A stretch of DNA of 57,705 bases, the filler included, from Sphacelaria rigidula (taxonomy: Eukaryota): assembly GCA_964200075.2 (NCBI GenBank). It is 9 parts of 9 records of this genome, joined end to end, with 100 filler letters (N's around TTAATTAATTAA, not from the genome) between each part and the next. Parts side by side here need not be neighbours in the genome. Positions count along the whole stretch, not along the records: positions 44,962 to 51,283 come from CAXNAA020020791.1; 8 more parts are not named here. One strand, written 5' to 3'. The notes under the pieces are model-generated. The model was not told the DNA's origin and did no database searches. It saw only the letters and a list, made by a program, of their open reading frames with translations. Of the stretch, positions 875 to 53,285 are shown piece after piece. The position numbers and the translations under genes are program-made. Position 1 is the first letter of the stretch. Every line of letters begins with the position of its first letter.

Positions 875-1359
875 CTACAGCGGTTTGGGAAGGATGGACG
901 CAACCATGTACCGGGATGGCCAAGGGGGGAATGATGGGCGGGGCGGGCGGGGCGGGGCGGGGCGGAGTAAGTGCTTCGTTTTCTCCAATTGTTGAGTCGT
1001 GGTCCTTCGACGCATGAACTTTTGAACGTTTTCGTTCCTGTCATGAGTAGAAAATTGTGGTCTGTTGATCCTTGGTCGTCCTCACTATCGTTTTTACTGC
1101 GATGATGCCTCAACTGAACAAAACATGGGAAACGGGTGCATCCTCCCGATGAAGGCGGGGAACAAGGGAGCGTAAACATGCAGCTTTTTATCGTCAGATA
1201 TGAAACCTTAAGCACTGGTCATGGCGATTTCGCTCGAAATACTGGACAGTCGATCCTTCAACGAAAACAGGAACGTGGTCTATTGTCCAGTGGGCATGTT
1301 GATTGCGGGAAAGAAAAAAAAACTTCCAACATCCGTTGCTAATCCACACCGTAACTCAC

Positions 1360-3849: not shown

Positions 3850-4572
3850 CTGCGAAGGGGGCCAACGAACGGGCGCAGTGGGGATGCGGGTGGGGGAAGG
3901 AAGATGGGAGAGGCCGGTGGGCGCATGCACGGGCGAAGTCAGGGAGCATCGCGAGATTGAACCATGTCGACAATTTTCCGAGTGTGAGAACGTGAAGGCA
4001 TAGTTTTTGTAATAACTGAACGGCGAATGATGAGCGTCGTCAACCATGTTGAGCGGGGCTTTTGCTGAAGGAACCCCGCGTGTCGTGCATGAGCCATGTG
4101 TAGCATACTGAAGAAACGACCATACTAAAACACCACGGCAAGCCTACTTCTGGAGTGTGCGGATAGGCAGCGCGTATCACTGAGTTGAGTTGAGTTGAGA
4201 CCAACATGAACAATCCGCGCCGGCCCCACAATGAAACGAACAAAAATGTAAATAACAACGACGGTGGTACACTTGAAACTCCAAACAGGCAGCAGGGGAC
4301 GCCATGGCAACGCCACTACCTACAGATGCATGAAAGAGGGAGCGAGCTACCACCACCCCAACGCCACTCAAGTCTCCAAGAGAGTGCAGCGGCATATCGG
4401 CAAGCGCGGCGGCGTCAGGCACCAGTAGATGGGAATAGACCCAATCAACAGTACATTTTTCTCGTTCTCTGCCGCCAGCGCACCTTCTATAACTCTCAGG
4501 TTGGGCATACTTGGGATTTTCCCACGTTTGAAAAAGAGGGTAGGTGAAAAAAAAGGGAGGACCGCAACTCAC

Positions 4573-6323: not shown

Positions 6324-6423
6324 NNNNNNNNNNNNNNNNNNNNNNNNNNNNNNNNNNNNNNNNNNNNTTAATTAATTAANNNNNNNNNNNNNNNNNNNNN
6401 NNNNNNNNNNNNNNNNNNNNNNN
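6324..6423. other. Artificial contig linker (first of eight; also 12747-12846, 19170-19269, 25593-25692, 32016-32115, 38439-38538, 44862-44961, 51284-51383)
   Basis: Identical N44-TTAATTAATTAA-N44, which gives stops in all six frames, separating segments of 6323 or 6322 bp. Confidence 0.98.
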
Positions 6424-11470: not shown

Positions 11471-12846
11471 GTCGTTGTGTTGAGTCTTCCCCAAAATGAC
11501 CCTTCTTGGCAAAAAAAGCATGCTTTCGCATGTACCCTGGTGGGGGCGGAAGGCTGGAAATCCCCCGAAATAATGTTAGGGAGGTCGGGACGGAGGAGGT
11601 TGTCCATGTGAAAGTCATCCATCAACTTAGGTCTGGGGTAGCACGGCTTTTGAGTTGAACCTCATTTGTTTTCAACCCCATTTTTGACAATCCACTGTTC
11701 CCTGTCAGTGCGAACGGGGGATGGTAAATGAAACTGAGCCATGTTTCTGTTGGCAGGTTCGTCTCCTACAAGCAGCTCTGCGGAAAATAATATCTCTGCG
11801 CAGATAGATGTACAGCACACTGGCTCCCCACCATCCCCGCTTATCTGCATCACGTGCATACAGCGCACACTTCTGTACTCATGACGAAATAGGAAAAAAG
11901 AACGGCTCCGCATATTTTCACAGAGAGATTCACATAAAAAACTGTGGTCCTCGGCGATGTGTGACGGACCTTACCCCCCCCCCCCCAAACCCTGAATCTC
12001 CCTGGAACTATTTTGGGGGGTTTCTAGGCTTCCGTTCCCACGCAGGGTATGACTTTGTGCAAACAAACCATCATCGGGCTCAAAAGCGTCCCCCTTTTCA
12101 CCCCGAGATCGAGGCCAAAGTGTGTTTTCGCACATCTCTGACGGAACAGAAGGCTAAAAAAACCCCAAAATCATTTCAGGGAGATCGGAGTGGATGAGGT
12201 CGTCCATACATGAAAGTAACATGTCACTACTTCAGTCCAGCAAAGCACTGGTTGAAGTTGAAATTGAATTCAATCTTAAACCTGGTTCAACCGCATTTTG
12301 CCCCCCCTCCGTTTAGCGTCCCTAACGGTCACGCTTACTCCCTTCTTTCGTAGTGCTTAAGTAAGTGCAAAGTCAGTATGTGTGCTTTGTGTCTTTGCTG
12401 AATGTAGCGGCAAGATACATTCAGCGTGCCATTGCTCCCACTGAACACAGTCTACTGCATGCTGCTGTGCCTCTGCGTATGAGAGGAAAACTCCGGATGT
12501 CCGTGGACTGTCAGCCTGTGAAGCTGTTCCGAGGCGATGCTCGATGTCTGAGGGTTTTTGTGACGCCCCTTGTATTTAGATGCTACACAAACGCCTCCAC
12601 AACGCTGACACATCCCGGAATTGAACGTTTTTCTTCAAGTGTTTGTCAAACTTACCTCAAAACCTGCAGTACCGACTGAAACAATTTCACGGTTAGGACA
12701 AATAATGATTGGTCAGGAAATTACTTGGTTTTAGTATAATAAGTTGNNNNNNNNNNNNNNNNNNNNNNNNNNNNNNNNNNNNNNNNNNNNTTAATTAATT
12801 AANNNNNNNNNNNNNNNNNNNNNNNNNNNNNNNNNNNNNNNNNNNN

Positions 12847-15565: not shown

Positions 15566-15621
15566 CTCGTGTGCTCAAAAAAGGCAGGGGCAATGTGTCT
15601 GGTCTGCGGTCTCTAATCAAA

Positions 15622-17503: not shown

Positions 17504-19269
17504 AACCGCTAGGTAGGTTTGACTACGAAAATCCCAAAAGCCGCAAGGTGAAATAATTCAACAAAAACTACGGTACGCAGCTCAACAAGCGGGGTTTCAA
17601 TCGATGCTAAAAAGGAAACGCAATTGCAACACAGAGGGAGCTCCTTAGTCAAACGCCAAATGTAATGAGACTGTTGTGCTATATTTGCAAGGACACAGCT
17701 TGCAGTCCAAGGTACAGGCTCTCACAAGGTAAGTGGACAACAATCAGGCTACTGGCACAAGTTCTGCACACTGCTGAGCACAGCCAAGCACAATATGGCA
17801 GACGAATTCTCACGCAATGGTTCTTCACTTCTTCTGGATTATCTTGTCTCTAACTTCCAGTATCCAATCAATCCATCCAACCCAAACCAGTCAATATGTC
17901 TCACCGGTGCTTAGACTTCTTTCGCTGGAAAGCAGTAGGGGAGCAGTAGGTAGTGACCGATGGAGGCAGCTTTGTTCGTGTTCTGCGAACAAAGCCGGCA
18001 TCATCTCTGCAATATACAGATTCACACCCGTACCTGACCAACTCTGTCAGACCTGCAGTCTTGTATCTTAGAATAATCCAAACACGAAATAGCCTGAAAT
18101 GCAGATAGCCAGACTCGACAACGGGTCTGAAGCGGCATGACAACAGGCTAGTACGCGTCTTCATGACAGGCCCCTGTACAGCCGGATCTAGGACCCCAAC
18201 CTGACAGGGATCTTCCCACCGAACTGCTGGCTATCCCTAGAGATCACTTAGACTTTCGACTTTGTCTCCGAGCCAACTCGCTCGCGCTCGTCGAGCTTTC
18301 CCTAGTGATCCAATAGTCTTAACCCCACGACTAACGGTCAATCCCTGACTACATGACCAGAGGAAAATCATCAAACAAATTTCTCCGGTTAAGAGTGGAT
18401 CCTGGAAAATGGGGACGATCTCATGAATGAGGCTCAAGTGGCATATCTTTTTTGCAGGGATGATGCGAAACAGTTACACAGAGTGAGACCATCTTTCCCC
18501 CCAAAACTCTGCAGCAGTGAATCAGTTGTGGCTTAATGCACTGAACGACTGCGGTGCACACGTGTGTGGATGGCGATATCACCAGAGAGAGAAGCAACGA
18601 CAGAGAGGAAGCTCGTCCCCCATGTCCTTTGTGTGTCCTCGCTGGGCGATTATCAATCACTTGAGAGACTGGCATCATGGATGTTACTAGCACGTGCCGG
18701 ATTTCCCATGTGCCGGTTGGTATCCCCACAGAACATCGAGCTGCGGAGAGATTTCGTCTCTTTTTGTCTCTGGAGGCCACCAATGCGAAGATCGATTTCT
18801 CTCTGCCTCTCTTCTTGGACAGGACGCGCTTCTGTGCGCTGTGAACTGGGAAATGTTCCCGTTACCGCTACTACTATTCTCTGTCACACACATGTCAGCA
18901 AGGGCGGTGCGCTGCGGCAAAGATAACAGATGATCCAATCGGAAACTGGGGGGTCTTATTCATCGTTGATTTTACCCGACATGACGTATCTGACCATCAC
19001 GGCGCCCGACCACAAGAGCCTGCCACAGGTCAGTCGGGGTGTGTGTGTGTGTGAGAGAGATTAAACACTTGTGGAGACCTTCTTGACATGCAGAGTGAAA
19101 AATATATACCTATAACAGCCTGGATTCGTTATTGAGGTTCAATATTTTCATGAGTTTCAACTCGAAAACNNNNNNNNNNNNNNNNNNNNNNNNNNNNNNN
19201 NNNNNNNNNNNNNTTAATTAATTAANNNNNNNNNNNNNNNNNNNNNNNNNNNNNNNNNNNNNNNNNNNN

Positions 19270-22636: not shown

Positions 22637-22955
22637 GTGAGCCTGGTCCGGCGAAAATCCGGCGTGTTCCGTCCTGGTTTTGCTGGGATGCGAGGTCAAT
22701 GGTCACATGATTACGGCATGCAAGATCATGAGTGCCCCCCCCCCCCCCCCCTGGCCACAGAAGGCGAAACAGGACGGGGATATGATGTGTAAACGGTTTT
22801 TGTGTGATGCATGGAAGAAACGTACTGAGCACCGAAGTGTTGGAGTTGTCTCCATTGGGAGTTACAACGGTGCTACGTCTCGAAAGGAATGCGTGGTCAA
22901 TGGTCACACGACTAATGCAAGCAACAAGTGAGTACGCCCCCCTCCCCCCCGCCCG
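22637..22955 (+). repeat. Dispersed repeat family B, longest copy, with a dimeric internal structure, in a RAD21 intron
   Basis: Matches 45220-45560, 6190-6270 and, reversed, 44795-44858. Two related arms ggtcaatggtcaca...gagt(ac)gccccc, each ending in a C-run. Confidence 0.85.
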
Positions 22956-24904: not shown

Positions 24905-25779
24905 ACAACAGTGTGATTTTTCCTTTTGTATGAGTGATCGATTGTATATTGCTTGTCACCCATTACCCCTTTGCTGCTGAAGGCCTTTATTATAGCCGAC
25001 AATTCCTCCCTTTCTCTCTCTCTCTCAGTTTTTTTTATTGAAGGAGGGCGAGCGGGGAGGGGGGCGTGATTGTCCCGTATATATCCGCTGCAAATCCAGT
25101 CGTGTGCACAGGGTAGATACGTACAAGAACACGATATTTATGGTGGGTACCGCCAGTAAGCGGGAAACACCCGCAAAACGAAAATTAATCGAGATACTGT
25201 GAGAAGGGAAAACGCCAAAAGGCGAGGAAGAGAATGGGGGGGGAAGGAAGCGAACGGAGAAGAGTTGACAAGATGAAAGGGAAGTTAGGAAGGGGGGGAG
25301 GGGGATGTGCTGACGAGAGAAGCACGCCAGTCTTGATACACAGTTTTCATGTGTTGATTGAAGGCTGAGAACGCCGTTTTTTTCTGTGGTGATCGCTTTG
25401 CGTCAAACCTCCCCCGATGGATGGATGAACGAATTTTTTTATTCTTGTCAGTTTTTGTTCACCAGTGCAGTAGCTCATATTTTTTGTGAGTCAAGTTTTC
25501 ATTACTGGGACGTTTGAGCGTTCAAATCCCCCCCCCCCCCCGTTGTAAAACACGCCACTCACTTCGTATGCTAGGCAACCAAGATTACCGGGNNNNNNNN
25601 NNNNNNNNNNNNNNNNNNNNNNNNNNNNNNNNNNNNTTAATTAATTAANNNNNNNNNNNNNNNNNNNNNNNNNNNNNNNNNNNNNNNNNNNNCGTAGCTC
25701 ATTACGCTTCTTCCAAATATTACACAAGAACCTCTTACATATCTTATCCCCGTCCTGTTTCGCCGTCGGGGGGGAAGGG

Positions 25780-28675: not shown

Positions 28676-29035
28676 CGGTCGCCCCGGTGGCTCAGTTGGT
28701 AACCTCGACACCTTCCGATGTTTGGGTCGTGGATTCAAACCTCGGAGCGATCTGGGATTTTTTCTCATACAACGCCCAACAGTGGAGAGCGTCCATGTCG
28801 TGGGTACACAAAAGTTGACTCTACGGTCGACGAGGGAAAGGGACTGCCGAACTCCTGTCGCGATAAAAAATCAAGGCAAGCACGGCAGAAGGACGGTGGA
28901 GAAGCAAAACAAACAAAAAAGAACTCCTGCGTTGGCCCTCCTCCTGTGTGACCCCGGCTGGTGCGCCCACATACACCGAAAGGTGTAGACCGGCGCCCAG
29001 AATAGATGGGATGACAACGCAGCACACAACACAAC
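28676..29035 (+). mobile_element. tRNA-derived SINE family A, full-length copy
   Basis: Pol III A box TGGCTCAGTTGG, B-box-like GGATTCAAAC, conserved body, 3' stem-loop and CA-rich tail. Six copies or fragments in the window. Confidence 0.85.
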
Positions 29036-29330
29036 TAACAAACAGAAGAGCACACTATTTATGCCTAGATTTTGTCTGTTCCAGTATGCGCCACGCTCTC
29101 TAAACCTTGAGTTCCCCGTCCGGCTGGGTACACAAGCGGCAGCAACATGAAGGGTAAAGTAATATTTACGAAGTACAACACAGCTAACAAACAGAAGAGC
29201 ATAATACAGACAGCTAGATGTTATCTGTCCCGGTGCGCGCCACGCTCTCTCTACCTTGGGTTCCCCGTCCGCCTGGGTACACAAGCGGCAGCGCTTTTCA
29301 AATCACGTGTCTTGATTCATCGGAGGCATT
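29030..29330. repeat. Tandem pair (about 150 bp units), inverted and diverged relative to part of the 27460-28140 unit
   Basis: ctaacaaacagaagagca...gcgccacgctctct...ccttg.gttccccgtcc..ctgggtacacaagcggcagc twice; its reverse complement resembles gtttgtgtacccagctg...cccaagg...gcgtggcg...gcgcttctgtttgtt. Confidence 0.75.
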
Positions 29331-32015: not shown

Positions 32016-32176
32016 NNNNNNNNNNNNNNNNNNNNNNNNNNNNNNNNNNNNNNNNNNNNTTAATTAATTAANNNNNNNNNNNNNNNNNNNNNNNNNNNNN
32101 NNNNNNNNNNNNNNNAAACCACCTCAGGATCGACGTTTTTAAAACCAATGGGGTCAATCCCTGGAGGTACCACGCC

Positions 32177-33713: not shown

Positions 33714-36700
33714 ATGAACAGTCAGGGAGAGCCATCTGTTGCACAACTTATCAGGAGCATCAGGAAATTTGACGGAACTAATTTCCTCGAATGGAAGCGC
33801 AGTACGCGCGCAGTGATTTCCCTGACACACCAAGGCCTCTCAGATATTATGAATGGGGGTACACGTCCCGCGGAAATTTATGATGACGTGGAGCACATTC
33901 AAGGTGCTCAATTACCTCCGATTGCAAGACCAACATCAAGATCAACGCCGCCACACACCCCCGCTCCCAAGGAACTCCACCGTCTTCATCAGACGAGGCA
34001 GCATAACCAAGAGATCCAGCAACACGAGATTCAGTTCAGGACCCGGCTGGTGGCGGAGTGGACTTATCCCAGGAGGACACTCATGTGAGAATTGTGGCCA
34101 ACAGATCTGAAATTGAGAATCGGGATCGCTGTAATGAACAGTTGTTCAATATTCTTCACTTGACAACTTCAGGCCCAGCGGGCAGTTTTCTTCTACGCTT
34201 CGAGCCGAAGGGCTATGCACGACCGAATGGCAAAATTGCTTGGGAGGCACTAGTCGGCAAATATGAAAACTCCTCGAAGCAAAGGCGGCGTATTCTTATG
34301 CGTCAGCTTGACAACATCAAAATGTCACCTGCACAAGATCCTAACGTTTTCCTGACCAAGATCTACGAACTGCGTGATCAACTGGTATACATGGGTGAGC
34401 CCATATCAGATGAAAGACATACGGATATCGTGGTGGAAGGTTTGGCAGATGACCATGATCAGATCAAGTATGATGCGGAGCGCGATCCTGACTTCAGCAT
34501 CTCCGACATCGAAGTGACAATGAGGAATATGTATTTCAATCGCGTCGCACGCGGAATTTTATCGAAAGGAGTACGCGGTCGAGATTCTGCTATGATAGCG
34601 ACATCATCAACTAATAATTCTTCAACTCCTACACGATTCGCGGGAAAATGTTTTTCCTGTGGTAAGCCTGGTCACCATATGCGAGACCGTCGTTCCAAAA
34701 GACAGTCCAACAGTAGCGGCAGGTCTGTTAAATGGTGTGGTCTGCACCAAACGGACAAAAATGACAATAGTGAATGTAAGAACCAAAAAGACAATGGAAA
34801 TACGGTCGGAAACCACAGTCATCATGGTGCAAACAACGATCGTCGTCGTCAACACACCCGCCACAACAACAGCCGCTCCAGCAGCAACTACAATAATTCC
34901 GGCCCCAGAGCAAACAATATTTCCAATCATCCGAATCAAGCCAACACCGTCACCATGGATCCTGCATCAACCACTTTATCAACAACGACGTCGACGACTA
35001 TTCCTTCGAATCACCAAGCTCAAGATATCAGCGGATCTTCATCCTTAACAGTGACCGATTCATGCTCGCCACCGAGTGGCATAGGCTACACCTTTTTTGC
35101 TGATCCTGAGGACAGGGTCAACACTCGGCCACCGGTTTCTATGTCATTCAAAATGGTATGTGATTCCGGGGCTAGCCATCACAACATCGACAATCAACTA
35201 CTGCCGAATATTGAAGCGGAGATGTTCGACTATATGTAAAACTCGATCCTCTCATGAGAATTCTGACAGCAGGCCTTCCTCTACTTTGCGGAACGGGAAA
35301 AGGTGTCCTCCACTCCATCGTCTGTGATCAGCAGGGCAACCAGCACTCCGTCCGCCTTCCGGCTATCATTGTGCAGGGCCTCGGCAAACATCTCTTCTCA
35401 CCTGTCGAAGCATTCCTGAAAGGAGTATCAACTATATTTTTGGTAAATTCTCACGTGGATCTTGGAAGCTTCAAAATTCCTATCCGGACCGACAATTCCG
35501 GTACGCTACACTTCCTCAACATGAAAATTATTCGGGATCAGAAGACCTTCTGCACCAACTCCGGGTCTACGTTTACAGCTGAGGTGGTTTCTGGAGACTG
35601 CATGGGTCAAGGGACAGCATTTACAGCTGTGGCCACCGAGGACGACCCCGCGGCTCTTTTGACCATTGTAAGTGCAGAAATATGGCATAAACGCCTGGGT
35701 CATCCAACTGAACCAGTTATGCGTCGTATCATGAATACACCCGAGACGGGAGTCAATTTTACAGGTTCACTTTCTTTGTGTGACACCTGCATGCTGAACA
35801 AAAGCACCCAGCGAAACCATCCGAAGACCGCGGACTTTTCATCAGTGACTGAGCGTCCACAACTTGTGACAACGGATCTGTCAGGATCCATCACACCGAC
35901 TGCATTAGAAGGATATAGGTATATGGCTATATTCACCGACCACTACAGTCCACTGAAAGTTGTATACTTTATCAAGGCAAAAGGTGAGGCAATTGCTACC
36001 CTGTGCAAGTATGTTCAAGACGTGGCAATTCCCTTAGGACTACGAGTACACCGCCTGCTATCAGATCGGGGGGGGAGAATATATCGCAGACTACTTTCGA
36101 CGATACTGCAAAACCACAGGAATTCTCCGAGAGTTCACCTGTCCACATACTCCCCAGCAAAATGGTATGTCAGAACGCGACGGAAGAACTATTCTCAGCA
36201 TAACCCGTTGCCCCTTGAACGAAGGGCACCTGCCCAAGTACCTATGGGGTGAAATAGCAGCGACGGCAGTATTTCTATTGAATCGTCTACCCTATAGTAG
36301 CATCAACGGAGAAACATCGTACTACTGGATGTTTGGAAAACAGGCGAAATTATCGTTTCTACGCACCATAGGTTGTCGTGCGTTCGTACACAAGGAAGGA
36401 CACCTCAACAAACTGGAGGGCAAGGCATGGGAGGGAGTTCTAATAGGGTACGACAGCGACAGTTCTTCATACCGCATCTACGACCGGCACTCCGGCAGGA
36501 TTAGTAGTTATCGAAACGTCACGTTCATCTAACAAGCAGTGGGAGCATCAAACCTGCAACAAGGCCCAACCCCAACTGCTTGGGGGGGAAATGCTGACTT
36601 ACAGCCCCTTCAAGAGAGCCTACAGGACGAAGACGAATTTTGTCACAATCAAGACCACCTTCAACAGGACAATACGGATTTCAACAACATCGTTTTTGAT

Positions 36701-37378
36701 GGCATTTCACAGCTGGACCGCGGCGACAGCTCAAACACTTCTACTCATCCTATGCGACTTCGCTCCGCCGGAACTTCGGCCCGCACTACTTCATCTCATA
36801 CCAACCAACGTCATTCTCAAGAACTACGAAAACTAGCATTGGCGATCGAAGCTCCGCGGAATTCATCCATGGCTTTGGAATCAGTTACACATTATATCGG
36901 GACGGTCGGCATCGAAAGTGTCATACCCCCTGCATCCATTCCCGTTCCGAATAATTTCAAACAGGCCTCTTCCTCACCATATGCCACAAAGTGGAGAGCA
37001 GAGATGCTCGACGAACTCCGCAGCATTCAAGACCATCGCGTGGCCGACACTATTCCAGCTGGAAAAGTTCCGCCGAACAACAACATCATTGGCACGAGAT
37101 GGGTGTACAAGGTCAAAGCCGACGGACGATTCAAGGATCGACTAGTTGTACAGGGTTGGGCACAACGACACGGATTCGATTGCGGGAGTACTTTTGCACC
37201 AGTCTGCCGACTCGAGAGCCAGAGGATCCTTCTCGCGATAGCCACTGCAAACAGCTGGCCGATAATTGCGCTTGATGTACAAACAGCCTTCTTAAACGGA
37301 AAACTAACGGAGACGGTATATTGCAAACAACCACCGGGCTTCGAGACTTCGGACCTTACTACCGGACAACCACACGTG
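33714..37378 (+). mobile_element. Ty1/copia element 2 gag-pol (Gag, protease, integrase, N-terminal half of RT), frameshifted
   Basis: KFDGTNFLEW (Gag N-terminus), CFSCGKPGHHMRDR (knuckle, last C>R), CDSGASHH (protease), WHKRLGH...CDTC, TDLSG/SDRGG/QQNGMSER (integrase), IGTRWVYKVK...RLVVQG...LDVQTAFLNG...YCKQPPGF (RT). PR-IN-RT order defines copia. Confidence 0.97.
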
Positions 37379-37885
37379 AGATACCATAACAACCGTAACT
37401 CTCGCCCACAAGCGACGAGTATTCATGGTGTCACACCACGCGCTAGGGCTCAACTGAGCACAGCCGACAACGGATCAAGACGAACGATTTCAGCGACAAC
37501 AATCGACTGGGGATGCAGGAAGGATCACCTCCAGTATGTTGGCGTTCCAGGTCAGAGCTGGAGGGACAGACGGAGAATAGTCCCAGATCTCCGACGCTTC
37601 GGGCTATTCGATGAACGTGAATACCCAACCATCTTCGATATTCTGAGTTCCCTCAGGCAACTGTTTTTCATGGCAGACATTCATTTTTTCCAGGACCTGA
37701 GAGTGCTCAACGTTTTACTTCAAGGTTGGATCAATGAGACTCCAGATGAGTTTGGTGTTTTAATCACGAAGAGGTTACACGACCAACTGACCTCAAGAGT
37801 AGTTCAAGTATCGGGGTCATCATCGTTGCCCGCTAGACTCAAGTACGGGAGAGATTTGGATGCACAAATTGCACTGGAATCATGA
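37379..37885 (+). CDS. Unidentified reading frame of about 168 aa fused in frame to the truncated RT
   Basis: ORF 36539..37885 stays open after RT similarity stops at GQPHV. No YVDD and no RNase H motifs are visible before the PPT. Confidence 0.4.
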   Translation, partial: RYHNNRNSRPQATSIHGVTPRARAQLSTADNGSRRTISATTIDWGCRKDHLQYVGVPGQSWRDRRRIVPDLRRFGLFDEREYPTIFDILSSLRQLFFMADIHFFQDLRVLNVLLQGWINETPDEFGVLITKRLHDQLTSRVVQVSGSSSLPARLKYGRDLDAQIALES

Positions 37886-38438: not shown

Positions 38439-41400
38439 NNNNNNNNNNNNNNNNNNNNNNNNNNNNNNNNNNNNNNNNNNNNTTAATTAATTAANNNNNN
38501 NNNNNNNNNNNNNNNNNNNNNNNNNNNNNNNNNNNNNNAAGGGCTCGTATAAACATAACGGACTTTACTTATGGGACAGAGGAAGTACAACCCTAGTGCG
38601 TGTGCTGTGCGCGCCCATCACTCAAATCATCGCTTCTCGCCGACCTCTCAACATATTTGAGCAAGGTCACGCACGACGTTCTCAGCTATTGAGCAGCTGC
38701 GGCTCGAGCGGTGCTTTTTTGGTTTGCGGGGGCAACGCGATCCTCAGGTTCACCTATGATTGTGTTGAGTTGTAGTGAAAGCCTTTGCATGTGCCCATGA
38801 CAATGGGGAATCTGTATTCCCGTCCGAGGTGCACGCGAAATCACTTCTGCAAAATTGATATGGGGCAATTTGTTTTCGAGGGGTGGCATCGCAGCTACCA
38901 AGCACACGCGCTTTTTTTCAAAAGGAATTTGAAGAAAATGATGAGTCATCTTCGATAAGAAACCGCCCCATGGTACATGCGCGAAATAGGGGTCCTTAAC
39001 CAATGCGGCTATAGTAATGAAGTATATGACGGAGCTTAACACCCCCCGCGAGGGCGTGTGATGGATTCTCCAGCTGGGCCATGGCATCGAGTTGTATCAT
39101 AGGGAGATGAAATAAAAAAAAAACTCGTTCCATCAAGGAGATGATGGACATAGTATTGCTGAGGCTTGCCACGGAGGACACGCTCTCCATCACAATGTAC
39201 AATGCACGCTCTTCGTCGGGCGGGAGATGCCGGGCGATATTGTGATGGCTCTGACACGACGCGACCGTTCGTTTTCCCGACAAGGCCGATGCTGGAAGAG
39301 CCGTGAGACGTAAAAACAATATAGCCACCTACTTCCCTCGATGCCGTCGATAAATTGTGCGTCCAAAATGGTTGGCGCCAAAAGCAGACAGTCTCGGAAA
39401 CATTATCCCGAAGGAACGTCAGTCAGGCTTGGTCATTGTTGTGTTTGTGGGTGGTGAATAAATCGATGAGTGGCCGATTCTGCTGGTCCATGGTTCCTTT
39501 TACAAGGGATTGCGGCGTGCGCCGATTGAATGAGGTGCTAGGGGTAATCCGCACCCGCCTCGCAAAGGTCGGGAGGGCACTCCCGAGGAAGAGTTGATAA
39601 ATTATTACTTTATTCGACCCGAGTAGGTCAACAAATGAGTACGCCCCCGAGTAGGGTACGGTGTACATTGGTGGGAAGCCTTCCTCTGCGTATGGACCGT
39701 AAGAGCCGTGAAAACCCCCCCCTACCCGCCCCCTGCCCCCAGTGTTGTGTCACGAGACGGGTGCAGTATGATTTGATTTTTTATTGATGGTCGCACTTCA
39801 GCTAACCCCCCGATTCCGGTTTCTCTTCGGCACGTCTGTCACGATACTTGCCTTGCTTATTCGTCTCGCGGGGAGGGCGCAGCCTTCCCACCCCGCGTCG
39901 GCCGCTGTCTCCAGTCTGCCGAATATGGTACTTACTAACACGTGCCTCATCTCCACCAACGTGCTCTCCGTGACAATGTCTCCACGCCGGGTAAAGAACT
40001 GCAGCTGCAGGGTTCAATTTGGTTCCCATTCCAGGGTACAAATCCGAAGCTGCAGGACTGAGCCTGGGCGTCAGCACTCTCTGCATGACCCACTACCTAG
40101 ACTGTGTGTTGCATCACTACTGACACGAAACACAGACAAGCCAGTAGGTCAAGTTACCCTCCCCTACTTATTGGTTGTATTGTCGATGGCGTTAGCCAAC
40201 CCCGACACAAGCACTCCCAGTCGGGCGGCGGTCGGGGGGAAGAAGTACATGTCTCCAATAGATGTGCCTAGATAGTTTTAGACACATGGCCGCTTGTAGA
40301 GCGCTTCATGTGTCGAGCACTTCTTGAAACAGCACCGTTTGGGGGAAAAACATGAACGTATATCTTTGCTAGACTGAGCCCAGGGAATGCATAGGGCGAA
40401 CGACAGGATCAGGTATACCTGGAATATGTAGCTATACATAGGTACAGGGCATGCCTCAATGCGATAAGCTCAACCTCAAAGATACCCGCTTTGCACTATT
40501 ATACCGTACTTTTTTTGCACCAAATCTATACCTGGGAGTTGGTCTTCCACCCCTCAGGGGCCAGGCGCCACGCACGGGCCCTAGATCGACCACTGCAAGG
40601 ATGTGGCAAACAACTGCTTCGATTGTGCAGCATACAGGAGTGGGGTTGGGAACCTCGGGATACCAACCCTAGCCCTAACCCTAGCTTTAAAGGCTAGTCA
40701 GCTATTGCATCGGGGTTACAGGTGTTCCGAGTTTTCGCTGTTGATTTTATTCCGGAAGTAGCTCTGGTCGACCCGTTCACAACCCGGACCCTTACTTTCG
40801 GCCTCGATGGACGGGCTTTTGGGGGGAGGTGAAATATTCGGTTCTGGTGAAGAAATAGTGCCTACACAGTAGAGACCGTTGCCATTCATATGAATATATG
40901 GATGCAAGTTTCAGTCATCACTTCTGCTGACTGCCCACGTCCATATAGCATCCATCTACGCCTACAACGGCCATCCTCCAACACCTCGCGAGACTGCGAG
41001 CGGACAAAGCCTCGGAACAGAAACTAAGGCGTTCGAAGGGTTAGCCCTTGACTGCGAAGCCCTCGCGTAATTCGCCGTACAAGCATTCCTACCTCACAAT
41101 CATGTCACAATGATCGCCCTTTGACATTGATGAAAAAACCCGGAAATACTTGAGCAGTGAAAATGTCGACTATTTAACTGCCCGAATCCTGTTTTGGAAC
41201 ACCAGTGGGATGGGCTTCGGGAGTAGTCTCTGGATATTGCTTCTGGTTCACAGCGCCAACACGAAAGGGCTGTTCGCCATGCATATTCTGCGTTTCATGA
41301 TCGCTCTTGGATAAGCCATGACTAGCAGTACACGCCCCCCCCTCCCCGCTGCAGTACAGGGAAAATATGGCAGCTGTGGCGCCAGTAGTACATCTGTTGA

Positions 41401-44858: not shown

Positions 44859-44961
44859 GATNNNNNNNNNNNNNNNNNNNNNNNNNNNNNNNNNNNNNNN
44901 NNNNNTTAATTAATTAANNNNNNNNNNNNNNNNNNNNNNNNNNNNNNNNNNNNNNNNNNNN

Positions 44962-45185
44962 CGGTCGACGAGGGAAAGGGATTGCTGAACCTCTCTCGCG
45001 ATAAAAAATGAAAAGGCAAGCACCGCAAAAGGAAGGTGGGGTACAAAAAACAAGTAGGAAAGAAAAAGCCCCTGTTTTGACCTTCCTCCTGTGTGACCCT
45101 GGCTGGTGCGCCCACACACACCGAAAGGTGTAGACCGGCGCCCAGAATAGATGGGACGACAACACACGACAACGCACACCAAACA
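44962..45185 (+). mobile_element. SINE family A, 3' two-thirds (cut by contig start)
   Basis: Collinear with 28824-29035. Confidence 0.85.
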
Positions 45186-45219
45186 CATCATGGCACTTTG
45201 CGCTTGGTGGTTTGAGTGC

Positions 45220-45561
45220 AAGCCTGGTCCGGCGAAACCCGGCGTGCTCAGTCCCGGCTTTGTAGGCATACGAGGTCAATAATGATATGACTACGGCATG
45301 CAAAATCATCGGTACAGCCCCCCCCCCCATGTGGGGGCATGAAGTCGTTTGATATAATAGACAGTAGCGAGAAACGATGGTTATACTATAATGGTAGATA
45401 GATGGTGGTCATATACGGCGAATCAGGAAGGCGATAAAATATGCACAAGACTTTTGTGCGATGCATGGAAGAAACGTAATGAGCGCCGGAATGTTGGAGG
45501 TGTATCTAGTAGGAATCATGCTCCGTCTCGCAAGGCATGCGTGGTCAATGGTCAAACGACT
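45220..45561 (+). repeat. Repeat family B copy joined directly to gypsy RT
   Basis: Collinear with 22637-22915; it stops at ggtcaaacgact, where gypsy RLRELLARL begins. Confidence 0.8.
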
Positions 45562-48500
45562 TCGGGAGCTCCTTGCTCGATTGCACTCGCATGAGCTGAG
45601 ACTAACGCCATCCAAATCTCGCCTCGGGGCGACTGAACTGGATTTCCTGGGACATCCCATCCCCCCAGCGGGCCTACACCCCGACACTAGTAAAGTCAGG
45701 GCCATGACTGACATGCCTATGCCCACCAACATTTCTCAGCTTCGCTCCTTGCTAGGTGGACTCTCTTGCGACCTCAGTTTGTTGCCCAATCTGTCCAAAC
45801 GGATTCGTTCAATTGCGGACTTACTCAAGAAAGGCGTCGCGTTCGCCTTCACCGAAGACATGGAAACTGCTGTCCGCGAATTGCTGAAAACACTTACCGA
45901 AAAACCGGCTCTTTGTTTCCCAAACTGGGATGCAGTGCAAGACGGCTCTCGCCTCTTCCGACTGCACACAAACGCTAGCACCGACGGATTCGGCGCGGCT
46001 TTGGATCAACCGCATCTTGATGGTTCTGTCCGCCCCATTCTGTATATCAGCCGTGCCACCCCACCCAATGAAGCAAATTGGAGCCCACCCGAACTGGAAG
46101 GCGGAGTCATTACTTGGGCTATCAAGCGCCTTCGACAATATCGGTTTTACCTGCCTTTCTACATTTATACAGACCACGGCGCCCTGGAACAACTCGCTGA
46201 GGCTGGCGAACATGGCCCACGTGTACAGCGTTGGTTGGAGTTTTTGACCGCCTACCGGTATACTGTCAAGCATTGTCCAGGCAAGACCAACGGGAATGCT
46301 GGCCTTCTTTCTCGCTTGCTCCTGCCTCCAACGGCAGTTGACTTCAGCCCAGCTTGTCGACTAACAGAACATGACGAACCAGGCGTTTATCCCATCCGGC
46401 GTTTTTACACACCCATTTATGCCCTTGACTTGCATTGCTCCGCAACGGGTACGCGCACCGGAGGTCCTCGTTCCCAGCCCTACGATATAATCTTGGATGG
46501 GCTAGAGCCCACAACCGTTGATTTTGCCAATTTCCGCACTTTAAGCCCTCGCGCGATTTTTTCTGCGCCGCCGCCGTCGGTTGTTTACCTCATTTCCGAC
46601 AATACTCGGTCTGCCGCCCGTGCCAATTGCTCCGGCGACACCAACCACGCCTACTGCTTCCACGAGTCAAGCCACACCGGCTCCCAGCGCCCGCGCGCCC
46701 CGCGCCTTGTCGTCAACATCTGCCACACGCACTACGCGCATCACGAGGCGATCGCGCTCCCCGTTGCGCACTGCTTCAACAGCGCTTTCTGCGGCACCAG
46801 CCGTGCCCGCTCCTCCGGCTAGTGGAAGGACCGCCTTCGACCACGATCCCGACGTGGACATCGATGTCGGCACTCACGCCCCATCACCTGCTCCGTCACT
46901 TGCTGAGCCCTCCTGCCGGGTCGGCTCTCCAGCGGAAGGTCAACTGCGCGAGTTCCTCGCCAGGTACTCTCATCGCGATCGGGCTCGAGAACAGCACGCA
47001 GAACCATTATGCCACGCAACAATGCGGCACTTACAGCTTGGCTGCCCTGTTCCTATTCCAGCCGATATTATGGCGCCGGTTGGTACACTGCCACCGCCTA
47101 ACGCCTCCGACGTGTACGAGCTCGCTCGTATTGGCACCATCTTCACCACTGATGACGGCACTCAATTGCTTGTCCGCCGCCCTACGCCCCAGACGGGTAC
47201 AACTTCAGACGCTTCCATTGGACGTCATGCACGCCTACTCAATGACGAACCCACCCGCATATATGTTTCAATCCTAAATGCGGCCATGGGCCATGAAAGG
47301 CTGCCACTTTGACTTTTCTTGTCATCTTGGCGTCACGTACACATTAATTAGCGCTACTTGAACGCTTCTACTGGTGGATCGGTGTGGAAGCGTCCACTCG
47401 TTTTTGGATTCGGCGATGCTTCAAGTGCCAGGCTCGCAAAACCTCACGACAGACAATCCGCTGGCCTGTCATTTCTATGAAACTTCCCAAAGCCCCTGTT
47501 CACCTCGTGTCGTTTGAATTTTTCGGACCCTTACCGACCAAGGATCGCGGCAACATCTACATTTTACTCTTCACTGACCGTTTCAGCCGCCGTGCGTTCA
47601 TGTACGCTGTCACTAGCAGTCACTTCACTGCTGTAGGCACAGCCGACATTTTGGTTCACAACTATATCAAGCACTACGGTTGCCCGAAACGACTCCTCTC
47701 CGACAATGGTTCGCAATTCTGCTCCGACCTCTCGGACGCACTGATCAACCTCCTGGGCATTCGCAAGATTGCCACGAGCGCTTACCACCCCAACGGAAAT
47801 GGTGGAACTGAACGCGTTAACCACACCATGGCACAGATGCTATCTATGGTTGTGAACGACCGTCAAAACAGTTGGAACCTCCATCTTTCGCATGTCGTCC
47901 TATGCTATAACAACTCGGTCGACGCCGCTGCCGGCCTCTCTCCGAATGAACTGCATCTTGGGCGCTACCCTCGTCTGTCCATCACCGTGCTCGGAAGACA
48001 CACCTTCGATGGTCACCAAGGCCTGGATCAGGATTAGATGTGCTATCATGACCTCGCGCGAGCGCGACAGCGCGAAGCTTTCACCCTCGTTCGAGAATAA
48101 GACGCTATAAACGCCTCGCGCCTTGAGCGATCAAACACCGCTCTCTACAACTTGATGCACAAACGCCCCACCCGGAAGGTTGGCGATTGGGTCTGGGTTT
48201 TCAACAGCTTGTCGACGATCCGCCAAGGCGTCGACAGAGCCGCCAACGAAACAGTCGTGAAGACTGAATTGTCCCTTAACTGGACAGGATCATGTAAGGT
48301 TTTGTCCATCGACCCGTCGCCGTCGTCACCTGATGGGAAGCCTGTTGACGACAATTTTTCTACCTTGATCTTCCTCGCGACCTCCAGGGACATGGCGTTG
48401 AATCTCGCGTCTCTGTGCCTCGGTGCAAACCTTGCACGAACCCGCATGACACTACTGACATGCTGAAATATATTCCTGCCGGTTTCACACAATACGTGCC

Positions 48501-49162
48501 CAACAGTCACTCGACTAAGTCACCGCCTTATCACGTCACTACTGAAGACGTGACCGAACAACCTCTGCGTCACATTTCTGGCCACCAAATTACTCACGGA
48601 CGAGGGGGCGAAATAGCTGTCATGTACAAGACCCACTGGCAAGATCTTCGGAGCGCGTCTTGGGAACGCGAATCCGACCTTCAGTTGCATCGCCGTGAAG
48701 TTCTCCTCTATTGGACGCAACCCGCACAGCAACATCTTGCTGGCCACAAGAAATATCGCAACATGCGCCGCGGCGCCGCAGCCCGCGAACTTCATCGTGA
48801 CAAAAGAGTTACGCTTTGTTGCTGACGGTTACGAATTAGTACCCACCAACCAATGGGAAGCAAAACCCCGCGCAAAACAGAACGCGCTCCCCAAAGGTGC
48901 CTATCTGTGGCACAAAGACAGTGATCACCTCTGGTGGCTGGGCCAGATCCACTCAGTCGATCCCCACGCCGCGGATACATACATCATTCGCTTCCTCGAT
49001 GATCCTGGGCCTGTGCAGCTCAAGCTCCGCCCAGCGTCATACACCGTCAGCCCATCAGCGCCACGCGGTCCTTGGTGCCCACAACGGCTCGAGCCCAAGG
49101 GCCTACGTCGAGGCATCCAGCGCAATGTCGACCGAACCCACTACGTCAACGAATCGCCCTAA
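45556..49162 (+). mobile_element. Ty3/gypsy pol, 5' truncated and decayed: RT thumb, RNase H, integrase, GPY/F motif, chromo-like domain and a further C-terminal module
   Basis: SKSRLGATELDFLGH, PTNISQLRSLLG, LHTNASTDGFGAAL, WSPPELE, YTDHGAL, RVQRW, HLG...CFKC, LLFTDRFSR, LSDNGSQF, SAYHPNGNGGTERVN, KVGDWVWV...LSLNWTG, YKTHWQD...SWERESDL. RT-RH-IN order defines gypsy. Confidence 0.96.
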
Positions 49163-49847
49163 GAGTTTACACTCAATGTCCTGTCTCCAATGCGACATTT
49201 ATCTTTCCTCCCCAGTTCGGTTCTTAGATTATTCCTTTGCTTCCACTGTTCAGGTACGACCCCCGTCACGCTGCCACTCCTGTCAGTACCCTTCGAACCG
49301 GAGCTTGTCTAGAGCACCTTCGTCCACGTATACTGAAGCTTTACTGGAGCCTTCACCTTCACCCCTTTCACTTGTCTGGCTGGCGCTAGACCCTTTTGGG
49401 CCTATGAATTGCTGACTTTCCTGCTTTTCTTTGGCTAGTTTCCACTATGCATTCGTCGCATGTGGTTCGCCCTTTGGCGTAGAGTCTGGTCTGCCCTGTG
49501 AGCCCTCGTATTCCCCGTACCTCCCCCGTTTGCCTTTTCTAGCTAGCGCGTCATAGCATTGCGTGCGCTTCCGACTGATCGCTTGCCGCAGCAGCATTGT
49601 GTGCTCCTGCGCAGTCAAGCGCAATTACGCAATGGCGCTTCTTGGAAGTAACTTTTGCTTTTCTTGTTGAGTTGTGGGAGCATCGAGCAAGGATCGAACA
49701 TTGCCCTTTTGATTTTGCTCCTGGGGTAGGTGTTCTCGTGTCGTCTACCTGCTTCTCATGACTTTATGAGTCAGACAAGCCTCAGTTTTCCGTTGCCTTT
49801 TGTGAATCTCATCGCAACTCTAATAGGGGCTCGTCTGGGTGGGTGAG

Positions 49848-50351
49848 TGTCATGAGGTAAAGAGGCGTTTACAGCATCTCCTTGTCGGACTATAGATTTC
49901 GAGGATCGTACCGGTGAAATATCGTCACCGTCTTGGGGCAGGTTGCCGTACAGACTTGTGTTCCCTGAGGATCGTATAGGTGAACTATCCTCACAGTCTT
50001 GGGGCAGATTGCACGCAGATTTGTGTTCCAAGGCTCCCTGAACTTCGTAACGCCTGCTATTGTAGAGACAGACATGGCATGAGCCGTGTGTATTTTGCAC
50101 TTGTTGACACTCTTAGCTCGGACCCCTCAGCAATCTGCCGCTACTTGCCATTAGGTGAATTCGCGGAAGCTAGGCCCAAGGACATGGACACAACGAAAAT
50201 GAGAAAAAGCCTGTCTGTCTGGACCAGTAGATCACGGGAACCCACGTGTGAACCAACTAGTGTGTAAGTGAACATACAATTGTATCGGCCTGTCTTGTAT
50301 CGAAGATTGCAACCCAGACACCGGAGGCGTATCAGTGCTAACTTCGTCACA
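49848..50351 (+). repeat. Probable 3' LTR of the gypsy element, containing a tandem pair of about 67 bp (49901-50030)
   Basis: Purine-rich gggtgggtgag then TGTCATGA...TCGTCACA. There is no partner LTR to confirm; an alternative start is at 49731. Confidence 0.55.
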
Positions 50352-50849
50352 CTAATACTTGATTGTTTTTTTCAATCGTCACATATTCACTGATCTCCGA
50401 TGGGCCCATTCGTGGTCATTATCCACAAAATGTACGTATCCAAGCTAAACAAAACGGAAACGCTCGCCACAGACAAAACTGAACGGTGGGGGGAAAAAAA
50501 CAAAGAAATGAAGATCAAGAAAACGAACGGGAAGAGTGAATTGAAAAAAAAAAACTAAAAATGAAGAACAAAGTCAAACGAAACAACCAAGCAAAAAAAA
50601 AGAACGAACAGGACTAGGGAAGGGATAGAATGGAGAAGCAGTAGCAGCAGTGCCGTGTGTGTGCTGCAAGCGCGGCGATGTATGAAGATCCGCCGCAGGG
50701 ATAGAGAAGTGATGAGCTGCACCATATATAATGGGGGATTCACATTGCAAAGAGCCAAAACCGTGGATACCACCCCCGGGGACAACTCTCTCTCACCCCC
50801 CGATTCCCCTCCCCCTACTCCACGTCGCTTGACCGTGCTGCGCCGACAG

Positions 50850-50936
50850 GTTCGAAGAGGAAGATGAAGCCGTGGAAGCTGCTAACTTATCCGAGTTTGG
50901 GCTGGCCGCAGCGGTCATGTCGTCAGACAAGGACAG
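50850..50936 (+). CDS. Aldehyde dehydrogenase exon (C-terminal part; betaine/aminoaldehyde dehydrogenase-like)
   Basis: Pyrimidine tract, gacag acceptor, AG|gtagtg donor, 87 nt, phase 2/2. FEEEDEAVEAANLSEFGLAAAVMSSDKDR matches the ALDH F..EEEA...AN...YGLAAAV.S.D motif. Confidence 0.88.
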
Positions 50937-51177
50937 GTAGTGTACCGGGCGATTTATTGGGTTGTCACACAATTTTCATTGAAGTAATGGACGCGTTGCG
51001 AACCGAAGACGTGGCCACACGATGTATGTGTACTACCGCATGCGTCCAAACGTGAACGAGAAAACATTAAACCCGAACATGAGCAAAATGGAAAGCACTC
51101 GCTAGCCCATGGACACTCGGGAAGCGGTGAGGAATGAACAAGAATGAAAGTAGACGCAAGCACGAAGTAAGAAGCGC

Positions 51178-51180
<3 letters not shown>

Positions 51181-51230
<50 letters not shown>
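51181..51230. repeat. Poly-C run (50 nt)
   Basis: Directly visible near the contig end. Confidence 0.95.
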
Positions 51231-51863
51231 ACCCTTATCCCCGTGCGCCCGCACCTCCCGCCCCTCCCGCGCGCCCTGCCGTCNNNNNNNNNNNNNNNNN
51301 NNNNNNNNNNNNNNNNNNNNNNNNNNNTTAATTAATTAANNNNNNNNNNNNNNNNNNNNNNNNNNNNNNNNNNNNNNNNNNNNCGTTCCTACTCCTAATA
51401 AAGACACCTCCAGCATTGAGGTGGTGGGGGGGGGAGAATGGGGGGGGGGGAGTTAGCGATCAGGGCCGTTCATTGGTCAATATGTTGATCAAATCGTTGG
51501 TTGACAGTTCTCGCTCACATTGACCTGTTCGAAGGCGAGTCAGTGGGCCCGTACGTTTGCCATCTCGATTATCGAACACGCCTGCCTCCGCAGTAAAATG
51601 AGACTTGGAAATTATTCAGCCGCTAAGAGGTTGTGACGGACTCGCTACGAGCCCTTCCGGTACAAGACACGGCATTCTAGTAATTGAGGACATATAAATA
51701 TATATATATATATATATATGACACGTCTTGGTCTACTGTGTCGTTCCTGTCGTTATTTTCGACTTTTTTCATGTTCCTTATTTTTCAGTTCCGTTTTGTC
51801 TTGGGTACGTCTTTTGTGTGGAGAATGACCACGGCTGGATCATGACTCCAGGGGGGTCAGTTT

Positions 51864-51867
<4 letters not shown>

Positions 51868-51901
<34 letters not shown>

Positions 51902-52251
51902 TGCCATCCCATTTATTCTAGACGCCAGTCTACACCTTTCGGTATATGCAGGCGCACCAGCCGGGGCCGCACAGGAGGAAAACCAAGACAGGAGCTTCTT
52001 CTTTTTTTTTGGTTATAGTGGTCCGCCTTCCTTCTGCGGTGCTTGCCTTTACTTGTAGTCACGAGAGGGGTTCAGTGGTCTCTTTCCCTCGTCGACCGCG
52101 ACGTCGAATTTTTGTGTACCCACGACATGGTCGCTCTCTACCGTTGTTGGGGATGGTGTGAAGAAAAATCTCAGATCGCTCCGAGATTCGAACCCACGAC
52201 CCAACCGTCAGAAGCTTGCGAAGTTACCAAGTGAGCCACCGGGGCGACCGG
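51868..52251 (-). mobile_element. SINE family A, full-length copy with (CA)n tail
   Basis: Reverse complement has A box TGGCTCACTTGG, B box GGTTCGAATC, the conserved body and a (CA)n tail. Confidence 0.88.
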
Positions 52252-52912: not shown

Positions 52913-53285
52913 CGGTCGCCCCGGTGGCTCAGGTGGTAACCTCGAAACCTTTTGACGGTTGGGTGGTGGGTTCGATTCTCGGAGAGAACTCGGATTTTTT
53001 CTCACATAGTGCCCAACAGTTGAGAGCGACTAAGCCGTGGGTACACAAAATTCGACTCAACGATCGACGAGGGAAAGGGACTGCTGAACCCCTCTCGCGA
53101 TAAGAAATAAAAAGGCAAGCACCGTAGAAGGAAGGTGGAGAGCTACAACAAACAAACAAACGAACAAACAAACAAACAAAACGCTCCTGTGTTGACCTTC
53201 CTCCTGTGTGAACCCGGCTGGTGCGCCCACATATACCGAAAGGTGAAGACCGGCGTCCAGAATAGATGGAACGACAGTACACATG
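52913..53285 (+). mobile_element. SINE family A, full-length copy
   Basis: A box TGGCTCAGGTGG, B box GGTTCGATTC; collinear with 28676-29035. Confidence 0.88.

Follow-up and report, generated by a model that had tools for sequence, protein, structure and literature searches.

The fusion of chromodomains to integrases is the textbook case of landing-site choice by chromatin reading. Indeed, the chromodomain tails of chromoviruses bias their insertion sites, and the PWWP domain of LEDGF does so in trans for HIV; the integrase-chromodomain fusions of chromoviruses were reportedly treated by Gao et al. in 2008. In the present study, we analysed a window of 57.7 kb from Sphacelaria rigidula (i.e., the whole stretch of DNA, composed of nine N-spaced pieces of ~6.3 kb each and not of one locus), in which the piece 44962-51283 holds the 3′ part of a Ty3/Gypsy pol gene. 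An earlier reading of this DNA, made without database searches (the sequence-only reading), had placed two reader-like motifs at its end, and both were indeed recovered in the region 48560-49162 of this piece. Our results suggest, with a probability of roughly 0.6, that this 3′ end of a dead pol belongs to the NADAR lineage of Gypsy elements and that its composite integrase tail, made of a chromodomain-fold module (module 1) and a Tudor-like barrel (module 2), tethers the integration complex to chromatin.

The closest described elements come from brown algae. The accessible parts of the Ectocarpus study (PMC12477816, Genome Biol 2025) describe four Gypsy lineages with chromatin-reader domains, including three ‘putative C-terminal chromodomains’, the domains being found by InterProScan or HHpred. 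As presented there, NADAR is assigned to the Gypsy-12_Ec32-type lineage, described with a C-terminal chromodomain, a C-terminal Tudor domain occurs in Gypsy-10_Ec32, a separate lineage reported as the first transposable element with a Tudor domain, and the chromodomain Gypsy lineages of brown algae are unrelated to chromoviruses or to the oomycete Chronos (PMC12477816). In addition, the available text of PMC13076208 and PMC12477816 indicates that brown algae are devoid of H3K27 methylation, mostly devoid of H3K9 methylation and without DNA methylation, and that H3K79me2 and H4K20me3 mark repeats and repressed genes; the classical chromovirus target is therefore missing in these organisms. A second module behind the chromodomain is mentioned neither in the accessible portions of PMC12477816 and PMC11541908 nor in those of the preprint 10.64898/2025.12.07.692804, and full-text literature searches found no description of an integrase tail combining a chromodomain with a Tudor or PWWP domain, the available part of PMC12477816 giving single readers only. 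The sequence-only reading held the architecture to be undescribed: this stands for the tandem arrangement alone, which appears undescribed, and falls for the single chromodomain and Tudor fusions of brown-algal Gypsy elements, which the text available of PMC12477816 already reports.

In-frame architecture and lineage of intact copies

Using a 125-residue translation of module 2 (P0001) against 1.84 billion proteins, we identified 213 cluster representatives at E ≤ 0.001, 62 of them at E ≤ 1e-10. Note that four of the 150 listed representatives (P0039, P0047, P0094 and P0133) were set aside as unrelated repeat proteins with 6–8 short matching stretches, the sequences being inspected for two of these four. 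A word-based search for longer proteins provided P0003 (237 aa, 77% identical) and P0004 (779 aa, 53% identical), both of which contain the chromo-like stretch, the linker and module 2 within one open reading frame (ORF), P0004 additionally carrying the integrase zinc finger and the rve domain. When the 240-residue tail of P0004 was used as the query, 16 more proteins of 433–1229 aa were found with at least 81% tail coverage, including 9 with Pfam rve. In metagenome loci, open frames run through the tail over 598 aa (L002) and 2386 aa (L001), and a 1636-aa ORF of L003 comprises the reverse transcriptase (RT; RVT_1), ribonuclease H (RNase H), the integrase and the tail; these are the 3 loci with the tail among the 80 returned by the P0163 metagenome scan, the other 77 matching the integrase core only. 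According to local hidden Markov models (HMMs), both modules are present in 46 of the 60 collected proteins that carry the integrase C-terminal domain; of the other 14, 9 stop inside the chromo module or no more than 63 residues behind it, 3 stop just past the integrase C-terminal domain and 2 have a degraded middle. No intact chromo-only form was seen among these 60 proteins, a set collected via the tail. The prediction that module 2 is in frame with the integrase in intact copies is thus borne out by the tails of P0003 and P0004, by L001–L003 and by the 46/60 proteins. The family is moreover abundant, since 863, 706 and 778 contig pieces of three runs align to 2.5 kb at ≥ 90% likeness, most of them at 90–95%, and since the protein clusters hold 70–185 members at 90% identity, on scaffolds of up to 2.2 Mb.

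Between the three intact loci, which share 65–71% nucleotide identity, synonymous sites are saturated, with a proportion of synonymous differences (pS) of 0.66–0.85 (0.66–0.85 in module 1 and 0.71–0.79 in module 2). The proportion of nonsynonymous differences (pN) is 0.10–0.14 in the integrase core, 0.10–0.22 in the chromo module and 0.25–0.31 in module 2, and the ratio of nonsynonymous to synonymous rates (dN/dS), where computable, is about 0.05–0.08, 0.11 and 0.15–0.16, respectively. Both modules are under purifying selection. The conserved positions of module 2 (WYK, LWWLG, Y.VRFLDDPGP, Y and GSWCLQ) comprise those required by a barrel and many aromatics, and conserved basic stretches flank the barrel, namely the linker helix YRxMRxGAAxRELxR and the tail RGxxRNxD. 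These data refute the idea that module 2 resembles the motif by accident only, in DNA that is non-coding or decayed, an explanation to which the missing Pfam match and the out-of-frame, degraded state of the window copy would otherwise point: the 213 representatives at E ≤ 0.001, the intact ORFs through the module, a pN far below pS and a confident predicted fold all stand against it.

Concerning the lineage, L003 encodes NADAR (1.8e-52) in the ORF directly upstream of its RT-integrase ORF (region 1382-2998), and NADAR, RT, RNase H and integrase are joined in one protein in L001 (NADAR 1.9e-45), P0232 (2338 aa) and P0193 (2082 aa). All four show the features of the NADAR-Gypsy lineage of the Gypsy-12_Ec32 type, and the NADAR-Gypsy fusion reported for Ectocarpus is independently confirmed in metagenome and assembly data. 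Only Nemacystus decipiens and Undaria pinnatifida, both brown algae, contribute family members with species names, in the form of gene models. Among the runs that contain the window stretch, one bears the label ‘algae metagenome’, and no RNA run was listed. By sequence, the window element is placed in the NADAR-carrying Gypsy group of brown algae, an assignment made through the 53–77% identical tail and the integrase, the window copy having no 5′ part. This placement also bears on the explanation that module 2 is simply the Tudor domain already reported for Gypsy-10_Ec32, in which case the novelty would be reduced to an overlooked preceding chromodomain. The accessible text of PMC12477816 does report a C-terminal TUDOR in a brown alga, and a domain overlooked by Pfam could be picked up by HHpred; however, the sisters bear NADAR, and NADAR belongs by description to the Gypsy-12_Ec32 lineage, from which Gypsy-10_Ec32 is separate (PMC12477816, same portions), so that we regard this identity as very improbable.

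Folds of the two modules and their putative role

The AlphaFold2 (AF2) model of the P0003 tail, obtained with a 129-row alignment, reached a predicted local distance difference test score (pLDDT) of 84.6 and a predicted template modelling score (pTM) of 0.75. Module 1 is modelled there with strands 40-50, 56-64 and 71-74 and a helix 75-90, i.e., a three-stranded antiparallel sheet against a C-terminal helix. With VIA-align, residues 35-96 of P0003 align nearly end-to-end to chromodomains, with Z scores of 6.0–7.0, root-mean-square deviations (rmsd) of 1.3–1.8 Å and 19–31% identity overall; as an example, Chp1 gave Z 6.7 (rmsd 1.6 over 53/55), HP1 (1kna) Z 6.3 (rmsd 1.3 Å over 50/52, 26% identity) and Polycomb Z 6.0–6.4 (29–31% identity). 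The profile search related the chromo part to the Swi6 and MPP8 chromodomains (E 0.11–0.66), a local HMM located module 1 at residues 74-129 of P0002, weak Pfam Chromo matches were found in 10 of 129 family members (best E 0.0016), and the protein atlas proposed Chromo for the whole tail at 0.80, no lead reaching 0.9. A chromodomain fold is well supported for module 1 by these models, in line with the chromo-like character that the sequence-only reading had attributed to it.

Chromoshadow domains, which dimerise and dock peptides, are also among the module 1 matches (Z 6.3–6.5), and Royal-family barrels are able to bind non-histone methylated proteins too. Together with the occurrence of module 2 on two non-integrase proteins (P0022 and P0026, see below), this would suit a tail acting as a protein-docking or oligomerisation device for a host factor, for Gag or for another integrase subunit. 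We consider such a device improbable, as module 1 fits chromodomains better than chromoshadow domains, for which the rmsd rises to 2.4–3.1 Å and the identity falls to 10–14%, and no partner is known.

Downstream of module 1, the P0003 model contains a helix (101-118), a strand-helix element (128-141) and strands 152-156, 162-170, 177-182, 188-192 and 209-214, and the model of the window's own module 2 (P0001; pLDDT 81.8, pTM 0.70) shows the same barrel, with strands 40-44, 50-58, 65-70, 76-80 and 97-102. Module 2 is thus modelled as a five-stranded antiparallel barrel of ~55–65 residues. With the single-module model, the 20 Foldseek rows listed to rank 24 were all PHF1 or PHF19 (probability 0.97–1.00, E 0.011–0.036, TMt 0.58–0.64, 25–30% identity), the MTF2 Tudor domain also being among the Foldseek matches, and the 9 matches of the module 2 profile against the PDB were all PHF19 (E 0.0067–0.0093) or PHF1 (E 0.56–0.94). 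VIA-align superposed PHF19 (6wau) at Z 5.4 with an rmsd of 1.9–2.1 over 55–56/57, next to Spindlin-4 (Z 5.9–6.2), the RDM15 Tudor domain (5.5) and PWWP (5.5), and 34 of 50 rows were, as counted by entry titles, Tudor, Agenet, PWWP, SAWADEE, Spindlin or chromo-barrel entries. Among the 129 members, weak Pfam matches concerned Agenet (14), SH3_VIII-1_N (12), Chromo (10), PWWP (2) and Tudor_2 (1), and the protein atlas leads for module 2, all below 0.9, were Spin/Ssty (0.84), PTM/DIR17 Tudor (0.83), SAWADEE and Agenet; the BFVD viral structures provided no match at E ≤ 0.001. Altogether, a Tudor-like small barrel is well supported for module 2 by the models, as had been foreseen (pLDDT 81.8, Foldseek probability 1.00 to PHF1/PHF19), its homology to the Polycomb-like Tudor family is likely, and module 1, the linker helix and module 2 are predicted to form one compact unit. 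An internal duplication as the source of module 2 was rejected, the hhalign probabilities being low (1.8% between module 2 and the integrase C-terminal domain, 0.1% between the chromo module and module 2), and the likeness between GSWCLQ and GGWVWVYN returned by phmmer was short and not significant.

We compared the residues at the cage positions of both modules with those of known readers. In module 1 aligned to Swi6, the three cage columns are occupied by Leu/Ile/Met (24/26), Trp (31/38) and Leu/Ile/Val (33/39). By sequence, this corresponds to the group-II pattern of PMC3605345, whose accessible text defines group II chromodomains as those without the first and third cage aromatic and says that they are plant-only. 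For PHF1, the available part of PMC7492083 gives a cage of W41, Y47, F65 and F71 with D67 assisting, PHF19 Y80 corresponding to PHF1 F71. In the HMMER alignment of module 2, the first of these positions is Ala/Gly/Ser (92/118), the second Trp (107/118), the third Phe (102/127) and the fourth (PHF19 Y80) Pro in 106 of 124 ungapped sequences, the D67 equivalent being Asp (110/127). The other PHF19 cage residues are presumably W50, Y56 and F74, numbers that we derive from the +9 offset between PHF1 and PHF19.

Tethering is the best-supported reading, since it is favoured alike by the location of the tail, by its fold and by the known example of chromodomain tails. Behind its GPY/F domain, the integrase of functional copies carries the chromodomain-fold module, the conserved basic helix and the five-stranded Tudor-like barrel, and this tail would tether the integration complex to chromatin and thereby bias the insertion sites. 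Given that two of the three cage aromatics are gone from the chromodomain and that H3K9 and H3K27 methylation is largely missing in brown algae, the Tudor-like barrel may supply the recognition surface or add to it, the target being a histone mark, DNA or both. Binding and insertion targeting by the tail are inferred.

Several points weigh against this reading. Both modules had been proposed for an inspection of aromatic cages, and the canonical cage proved incomplete in each alignment: module 1 retains one of three cage aromatics and lacks the Y-W-Y cage of group I, and module 2 retains two of the four PHF1/PHF19 cage aromatics plus the Asp and lacks the four-residue cage, so that, judging from the sequences, a textbook aromatic cage is missing from both. 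No Pfam family was found for the tail pieces of the window, P0003 or P0005, P0004 giving integrase families only, and a threshold match to Pfam Chromo is absent for the window piece, P0003 and P0004. For both modules, no Foldseek match reached E ≤ 0.001 and no VIA-align match reached Z ≥ 8, and Z scores below 8 may merely reflect a common small-barrel arrangement; note that VIA-align, when given module 2 by itself, ranks a bacterial TraI domain (Z 6.0) first, and not a Tudor domain. Finally, the sister copies were themselves found by way of the tail, which biases the 46/60 proportion towards tail-bearing copies, and the dN/dS ratios are rough since dS is saturated.

Some of these observations would also be expected if module 2 were a small nucleic-acid-binding barrel in the manner of KOW domains, of the SH3-like domain at the C-terminus of integrases or of the face by which PWWP domains bind DNA; such a barrel would keep the intasome stable on target DNA or the element's own nucleic acid and would read no histone mark. 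Its canonical methyl-lysine cage is incomplete, conserved basic stretches stand on both sides of it, and the VIA-align rows include a PWWP domain bound to single-stranded DNA (Z 5.5), KOW, the Tudor-like domains of UvrD/PcrA and TraI. However, the profile and Foldseek searches both point specifically to Tudor domains of the histone-reading Polycomb-like type as the best matches, conservation is strong for two cage aromatics and for the Asp that corresponds to PHF1 D67, and module 2 has no profile relation to the integrase C-terminal domain of the element (hhalign 1.8%), which leaves this explanation unlikely.

Beyond tethering as such, we only tentatively propose that the tail is a genuine two-reader unit, in which it would fall to the barrel, instead of the cage-poor chromodomain, to recognise a mark in actual use by brown algae. 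The candidate would be H3K36me3, in keeping with the nearest matches PHF1 and PHF19, or else one of two marks found on repeats, H4K20me3 and H3K79me2, and recognition by the barrel would replace the H3K9me-based targeting of classical chromoviruses in a lineage devoid of H3K9 and H3K27 methylation. If true, this would be the first mobile-element integrase with two different Royal-family modules, and should the barrel prove to bind one defined mark, it could serve as a ready-made probe for brown-algal chromatin. More generally, the tail lineage offers a handle on retroelement chromatin targeting in the unusual chromatin code of brown algae, on reader-domain shuffling between elements and hosts and on whether a combinatorial read-out exists in a transposon.

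Module 2 also occurs outside integrases. P0022 (828 aa) and P0026 (612 aa) end in module 2 without chromodomain or integrase and are homologous to each other (29% identity over 672 columns); the N-terminal parts of P0022, P0156 and P0026 are coiled-coil-like and Ser/Arg-rich, without Pfam match, and when the N-terminal part of P0026 was searched for relatives, nothing but the query itself came back. In a quick, midpoint-rooted tree, P0022, P0026 and the fragment P0015 form a clade nested among element-borne copies, with a support of 98 in the Shimodaira–Hasegawa-like approximate likelihood-ratio test (SH-aLRT). P0022 and P0026 may have arisen by capture or domestication, or they may be encoded by a non-autonomous element. 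In P0084 (626 aa, on 3 contigs, the longest of 26,966 bases), the N-terminal part is acidic, coiled-coil-like and no integrase; it is followed by a chromodomain and module 2 that have diverged to ~40% identity with the element copies, and P0084 may be a host gene that originated from this tail. On the two-reader reading, the barrel would have been passed on to P0022 and P0026, and P0084 would have received the tail as a whole, possibly with host domestication. Two further published gene models join tail pieces with unrelated domains, namely P0006 of Nemacystus decipiens (TIMP and WSC) and P0178 of Undaria pinnatifida (protein kinase and cNMP-binding); in all likelihood, these are chimeric annotations that span the remnant of a retroelement.

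The window copy and its surroundings

The features of the window copy are collected in the table below. The pol remnant is cut off at its 5′ side, as gag, NADAR, the protease and the RT palm are absent from the piece 44962-51283. The first motif ISGHQITHGRGGEIAVMYKTHWQDLRSASWERESDLQLHRREVLLYW lies within the stop-free frame 48349..48825 and the second motif KGAYLWHKDSDHLWWLGQIHSVDPHAADTYIIRFLDDPGPVQLKL within the frame 48617..49162, one frame over from the first. With tblastn, residues 508-660 of P0004 were placed at 48352-48798 (frame 1) and residues 665-767 at 48812-49138 (frame 2), and the single frame change between the modules is therefore located at 48798-48812, in agreement with the one frameshift announced by the sequence-only reading. 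None of the contig pieces shown spans 48798-48812 without differences, and this frame change is either real or an assembly slip. In comparison with the intact P0004, the window copy has four frame changes (near 47277, 47347, ~48350-48500 and 48798-48812), and in-frame stops are found at 48035 and 48098. With these frame changes and stops, and with all that lies upstream of the RT thumb missing, the window copy of the element is dead. Sister ORFs terminate ~10–30 residues from the point of the pol stop of the window copy.

Features of the piece 44962-51283 and spacers of the window (positions along the whole stretch)
Feature	Position	Strand	Evidence or remark
RT thumb and RNase H remnant of Ty3/Gypsy pol	45398..46822	+	Pfam RT_RNaseH 4.2e-23, RT_RNaseH_2 2.9e-15
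Pre-zinc-finger region, two frames (46851-47276, 47278-47346)	46851..47346	+	tblastn with P0004 residues 9-150 and 151-173; translations
Integrase H2C2 zinc finger (partial) and catalytic core	47348..48037	+	Pfam rve 1.6e-10, Integrase_H2C2 4.8e-05
Integrase C-terminal domain, degraded GPY/F-type motif (VGDWVWVFN ... LSLNWTGSCKVL)	48101..48466	+	Frame of the core; aligns to P0004 and P0007
End of integrase C-terminal region (YLDLP ... RCKPC) and conserved pre-chromo stretch (KYIPAGFTQYV ... KSPPYHVT)	48349..48559	+	Next frame
Module 1, predicted chromodomain fold, group-II-like (Leu-Trp-Leu at the three cage positions)	48560..48735	+	AF2, VIA-align, local HMM
Conserved basic helical linker (YRNMRRGAAARELHR)	48736..48811	+	Helix 101-118 in the P0003 model, pLDDT ~89–95; frame change of the window copy at the linker end
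N-terminal extension of module 2 (RFVADGYELVPTNQW...), predicted short strand and helix	48812..48886	+	Strand 16-18 and helix 21-26 in the window-sequence model
Module 2 core, predicted five-stranded Tudor-like (Royal-family/SH3-like) beta-barrel	48887..49084	+	AF2, Foldseek, PDB profile search
Short basic C-terminal tail (GLRRGIQRNVDRT...); pol stop codon 49160-49162	49085..49162	+	Translations
Spacers between pieces	6324-6423, 12747-12846, 19170-19269, 25593-25692, 32016-32115, 38439-38538, 44862-44961, 51284-51383		44 N + TTAATTAATTAA + 44 N

Repeats cannot delimit the long terminal repeat (LTR) of the window copy, as this copy lacks its 5′ half. At 49837-49854, ~680 bases past the pol stop, a G-rich motif is followed by TGT, and L003 has a similar arrangement at ~8765; this may represent the polypurine tract and the LTR start, in which case the element has a long 3′ untranslated stretch. 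A ~64-base unit is present as a tandem duplicate at 49901-50029. The 5′ edge of the pol remnant (44962-45187 and 45406-45561) abuts repeats that recur in other pieces of the window (28824-29040, 53061-53282, 51875-52098 and 22752-22913, with 77–82% identity), adjoining pieces of the window being not necessarily genomic neighbours. Another piece contains a Ty1/copia remnant at 34007-37885 (+), with Retrotran_gag_2 (2.2e-08), gag_pre-integrs (6.1e-08) and RVT_2 (5.8e-29) in three successive ORFs. Long stop-free frames were also observed at 1339-4143 (−; 934 aa), within a G+C-rich stretch (57–62% G+C), and at 13673-15574 (−; 633 aa), both without Pfam match at E ≤ 0.001.

Comparison with known systems

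The closest described lineage is that of the NADAR-carrying Gypsy elements, with Gypsy-12_Ec32 as its example; the sisters of the window copy show the same NADAR, RT, RNase H, integrase and chromodomain as those given in the accessible text of PMC12477816. The difference, compared by description, lies in the second barrel after the chromodomain, of which the same portions of PMC12477816 make no mention for the Gypsy-12_Ec32 lineage. In contrast, Gypsy-10_Ec32 is presented there as a separate lineage with Tudor only (PMC12477816), whereas here a barrel stands after the chromodomain in the NADAR lineage and, moreover, is not recognised by Pfam.

With the chromoviruses (MAGGY, Tf1 and the plant Tekay/Reina/Galadriel group II), the tail shares a chromodomain located directly after the GPY/F region. 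Chromovirus group II also lacks the first and third cage aromatics, as module 1 does, according to the available part of PMC3605345. However, chromoviruses have one module only.

The Polycomb-like Tudor domains of PHF1, PHF19 and MTF2, described in the accessible text of PMC7492083 as readers of H3K36me3 and H3tK27me3, are five-stranded barrels, as module 2 is predicted to be, and rank best among its matches in the profile and Foldseek searches. Module 2 conserves the counterparts of Y56/Y47, F74/F65 and D67 (PHF19/PHF1 numbering, D67 of PHF1), whereas those of W50/W41 and Y80/F71 are small residues or Pro. In addition, module 2 differs by an extra N-terminal strand-helix and by the GSWCLQ strand, and the identity is merely 20–30%.

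Spindlin, the tandem Tudor of UHRF1 and the double chromodomain of CHD1 resemble the tail in that two Royal-family modules make up one rigid unit, by prediction in the case of the tail, and Spindlin and UHRF1 were among its structural matches. The PWWP domain of LEDGF/p75 tethers the HIV integrase and thus directs integration through a Royal-family barrel. In contrast to Spindlin, UHRF1, CHD1 and LEDGF, which are host proteins, the two modules described here both lie within the integrase polypeptide of a mobile element.

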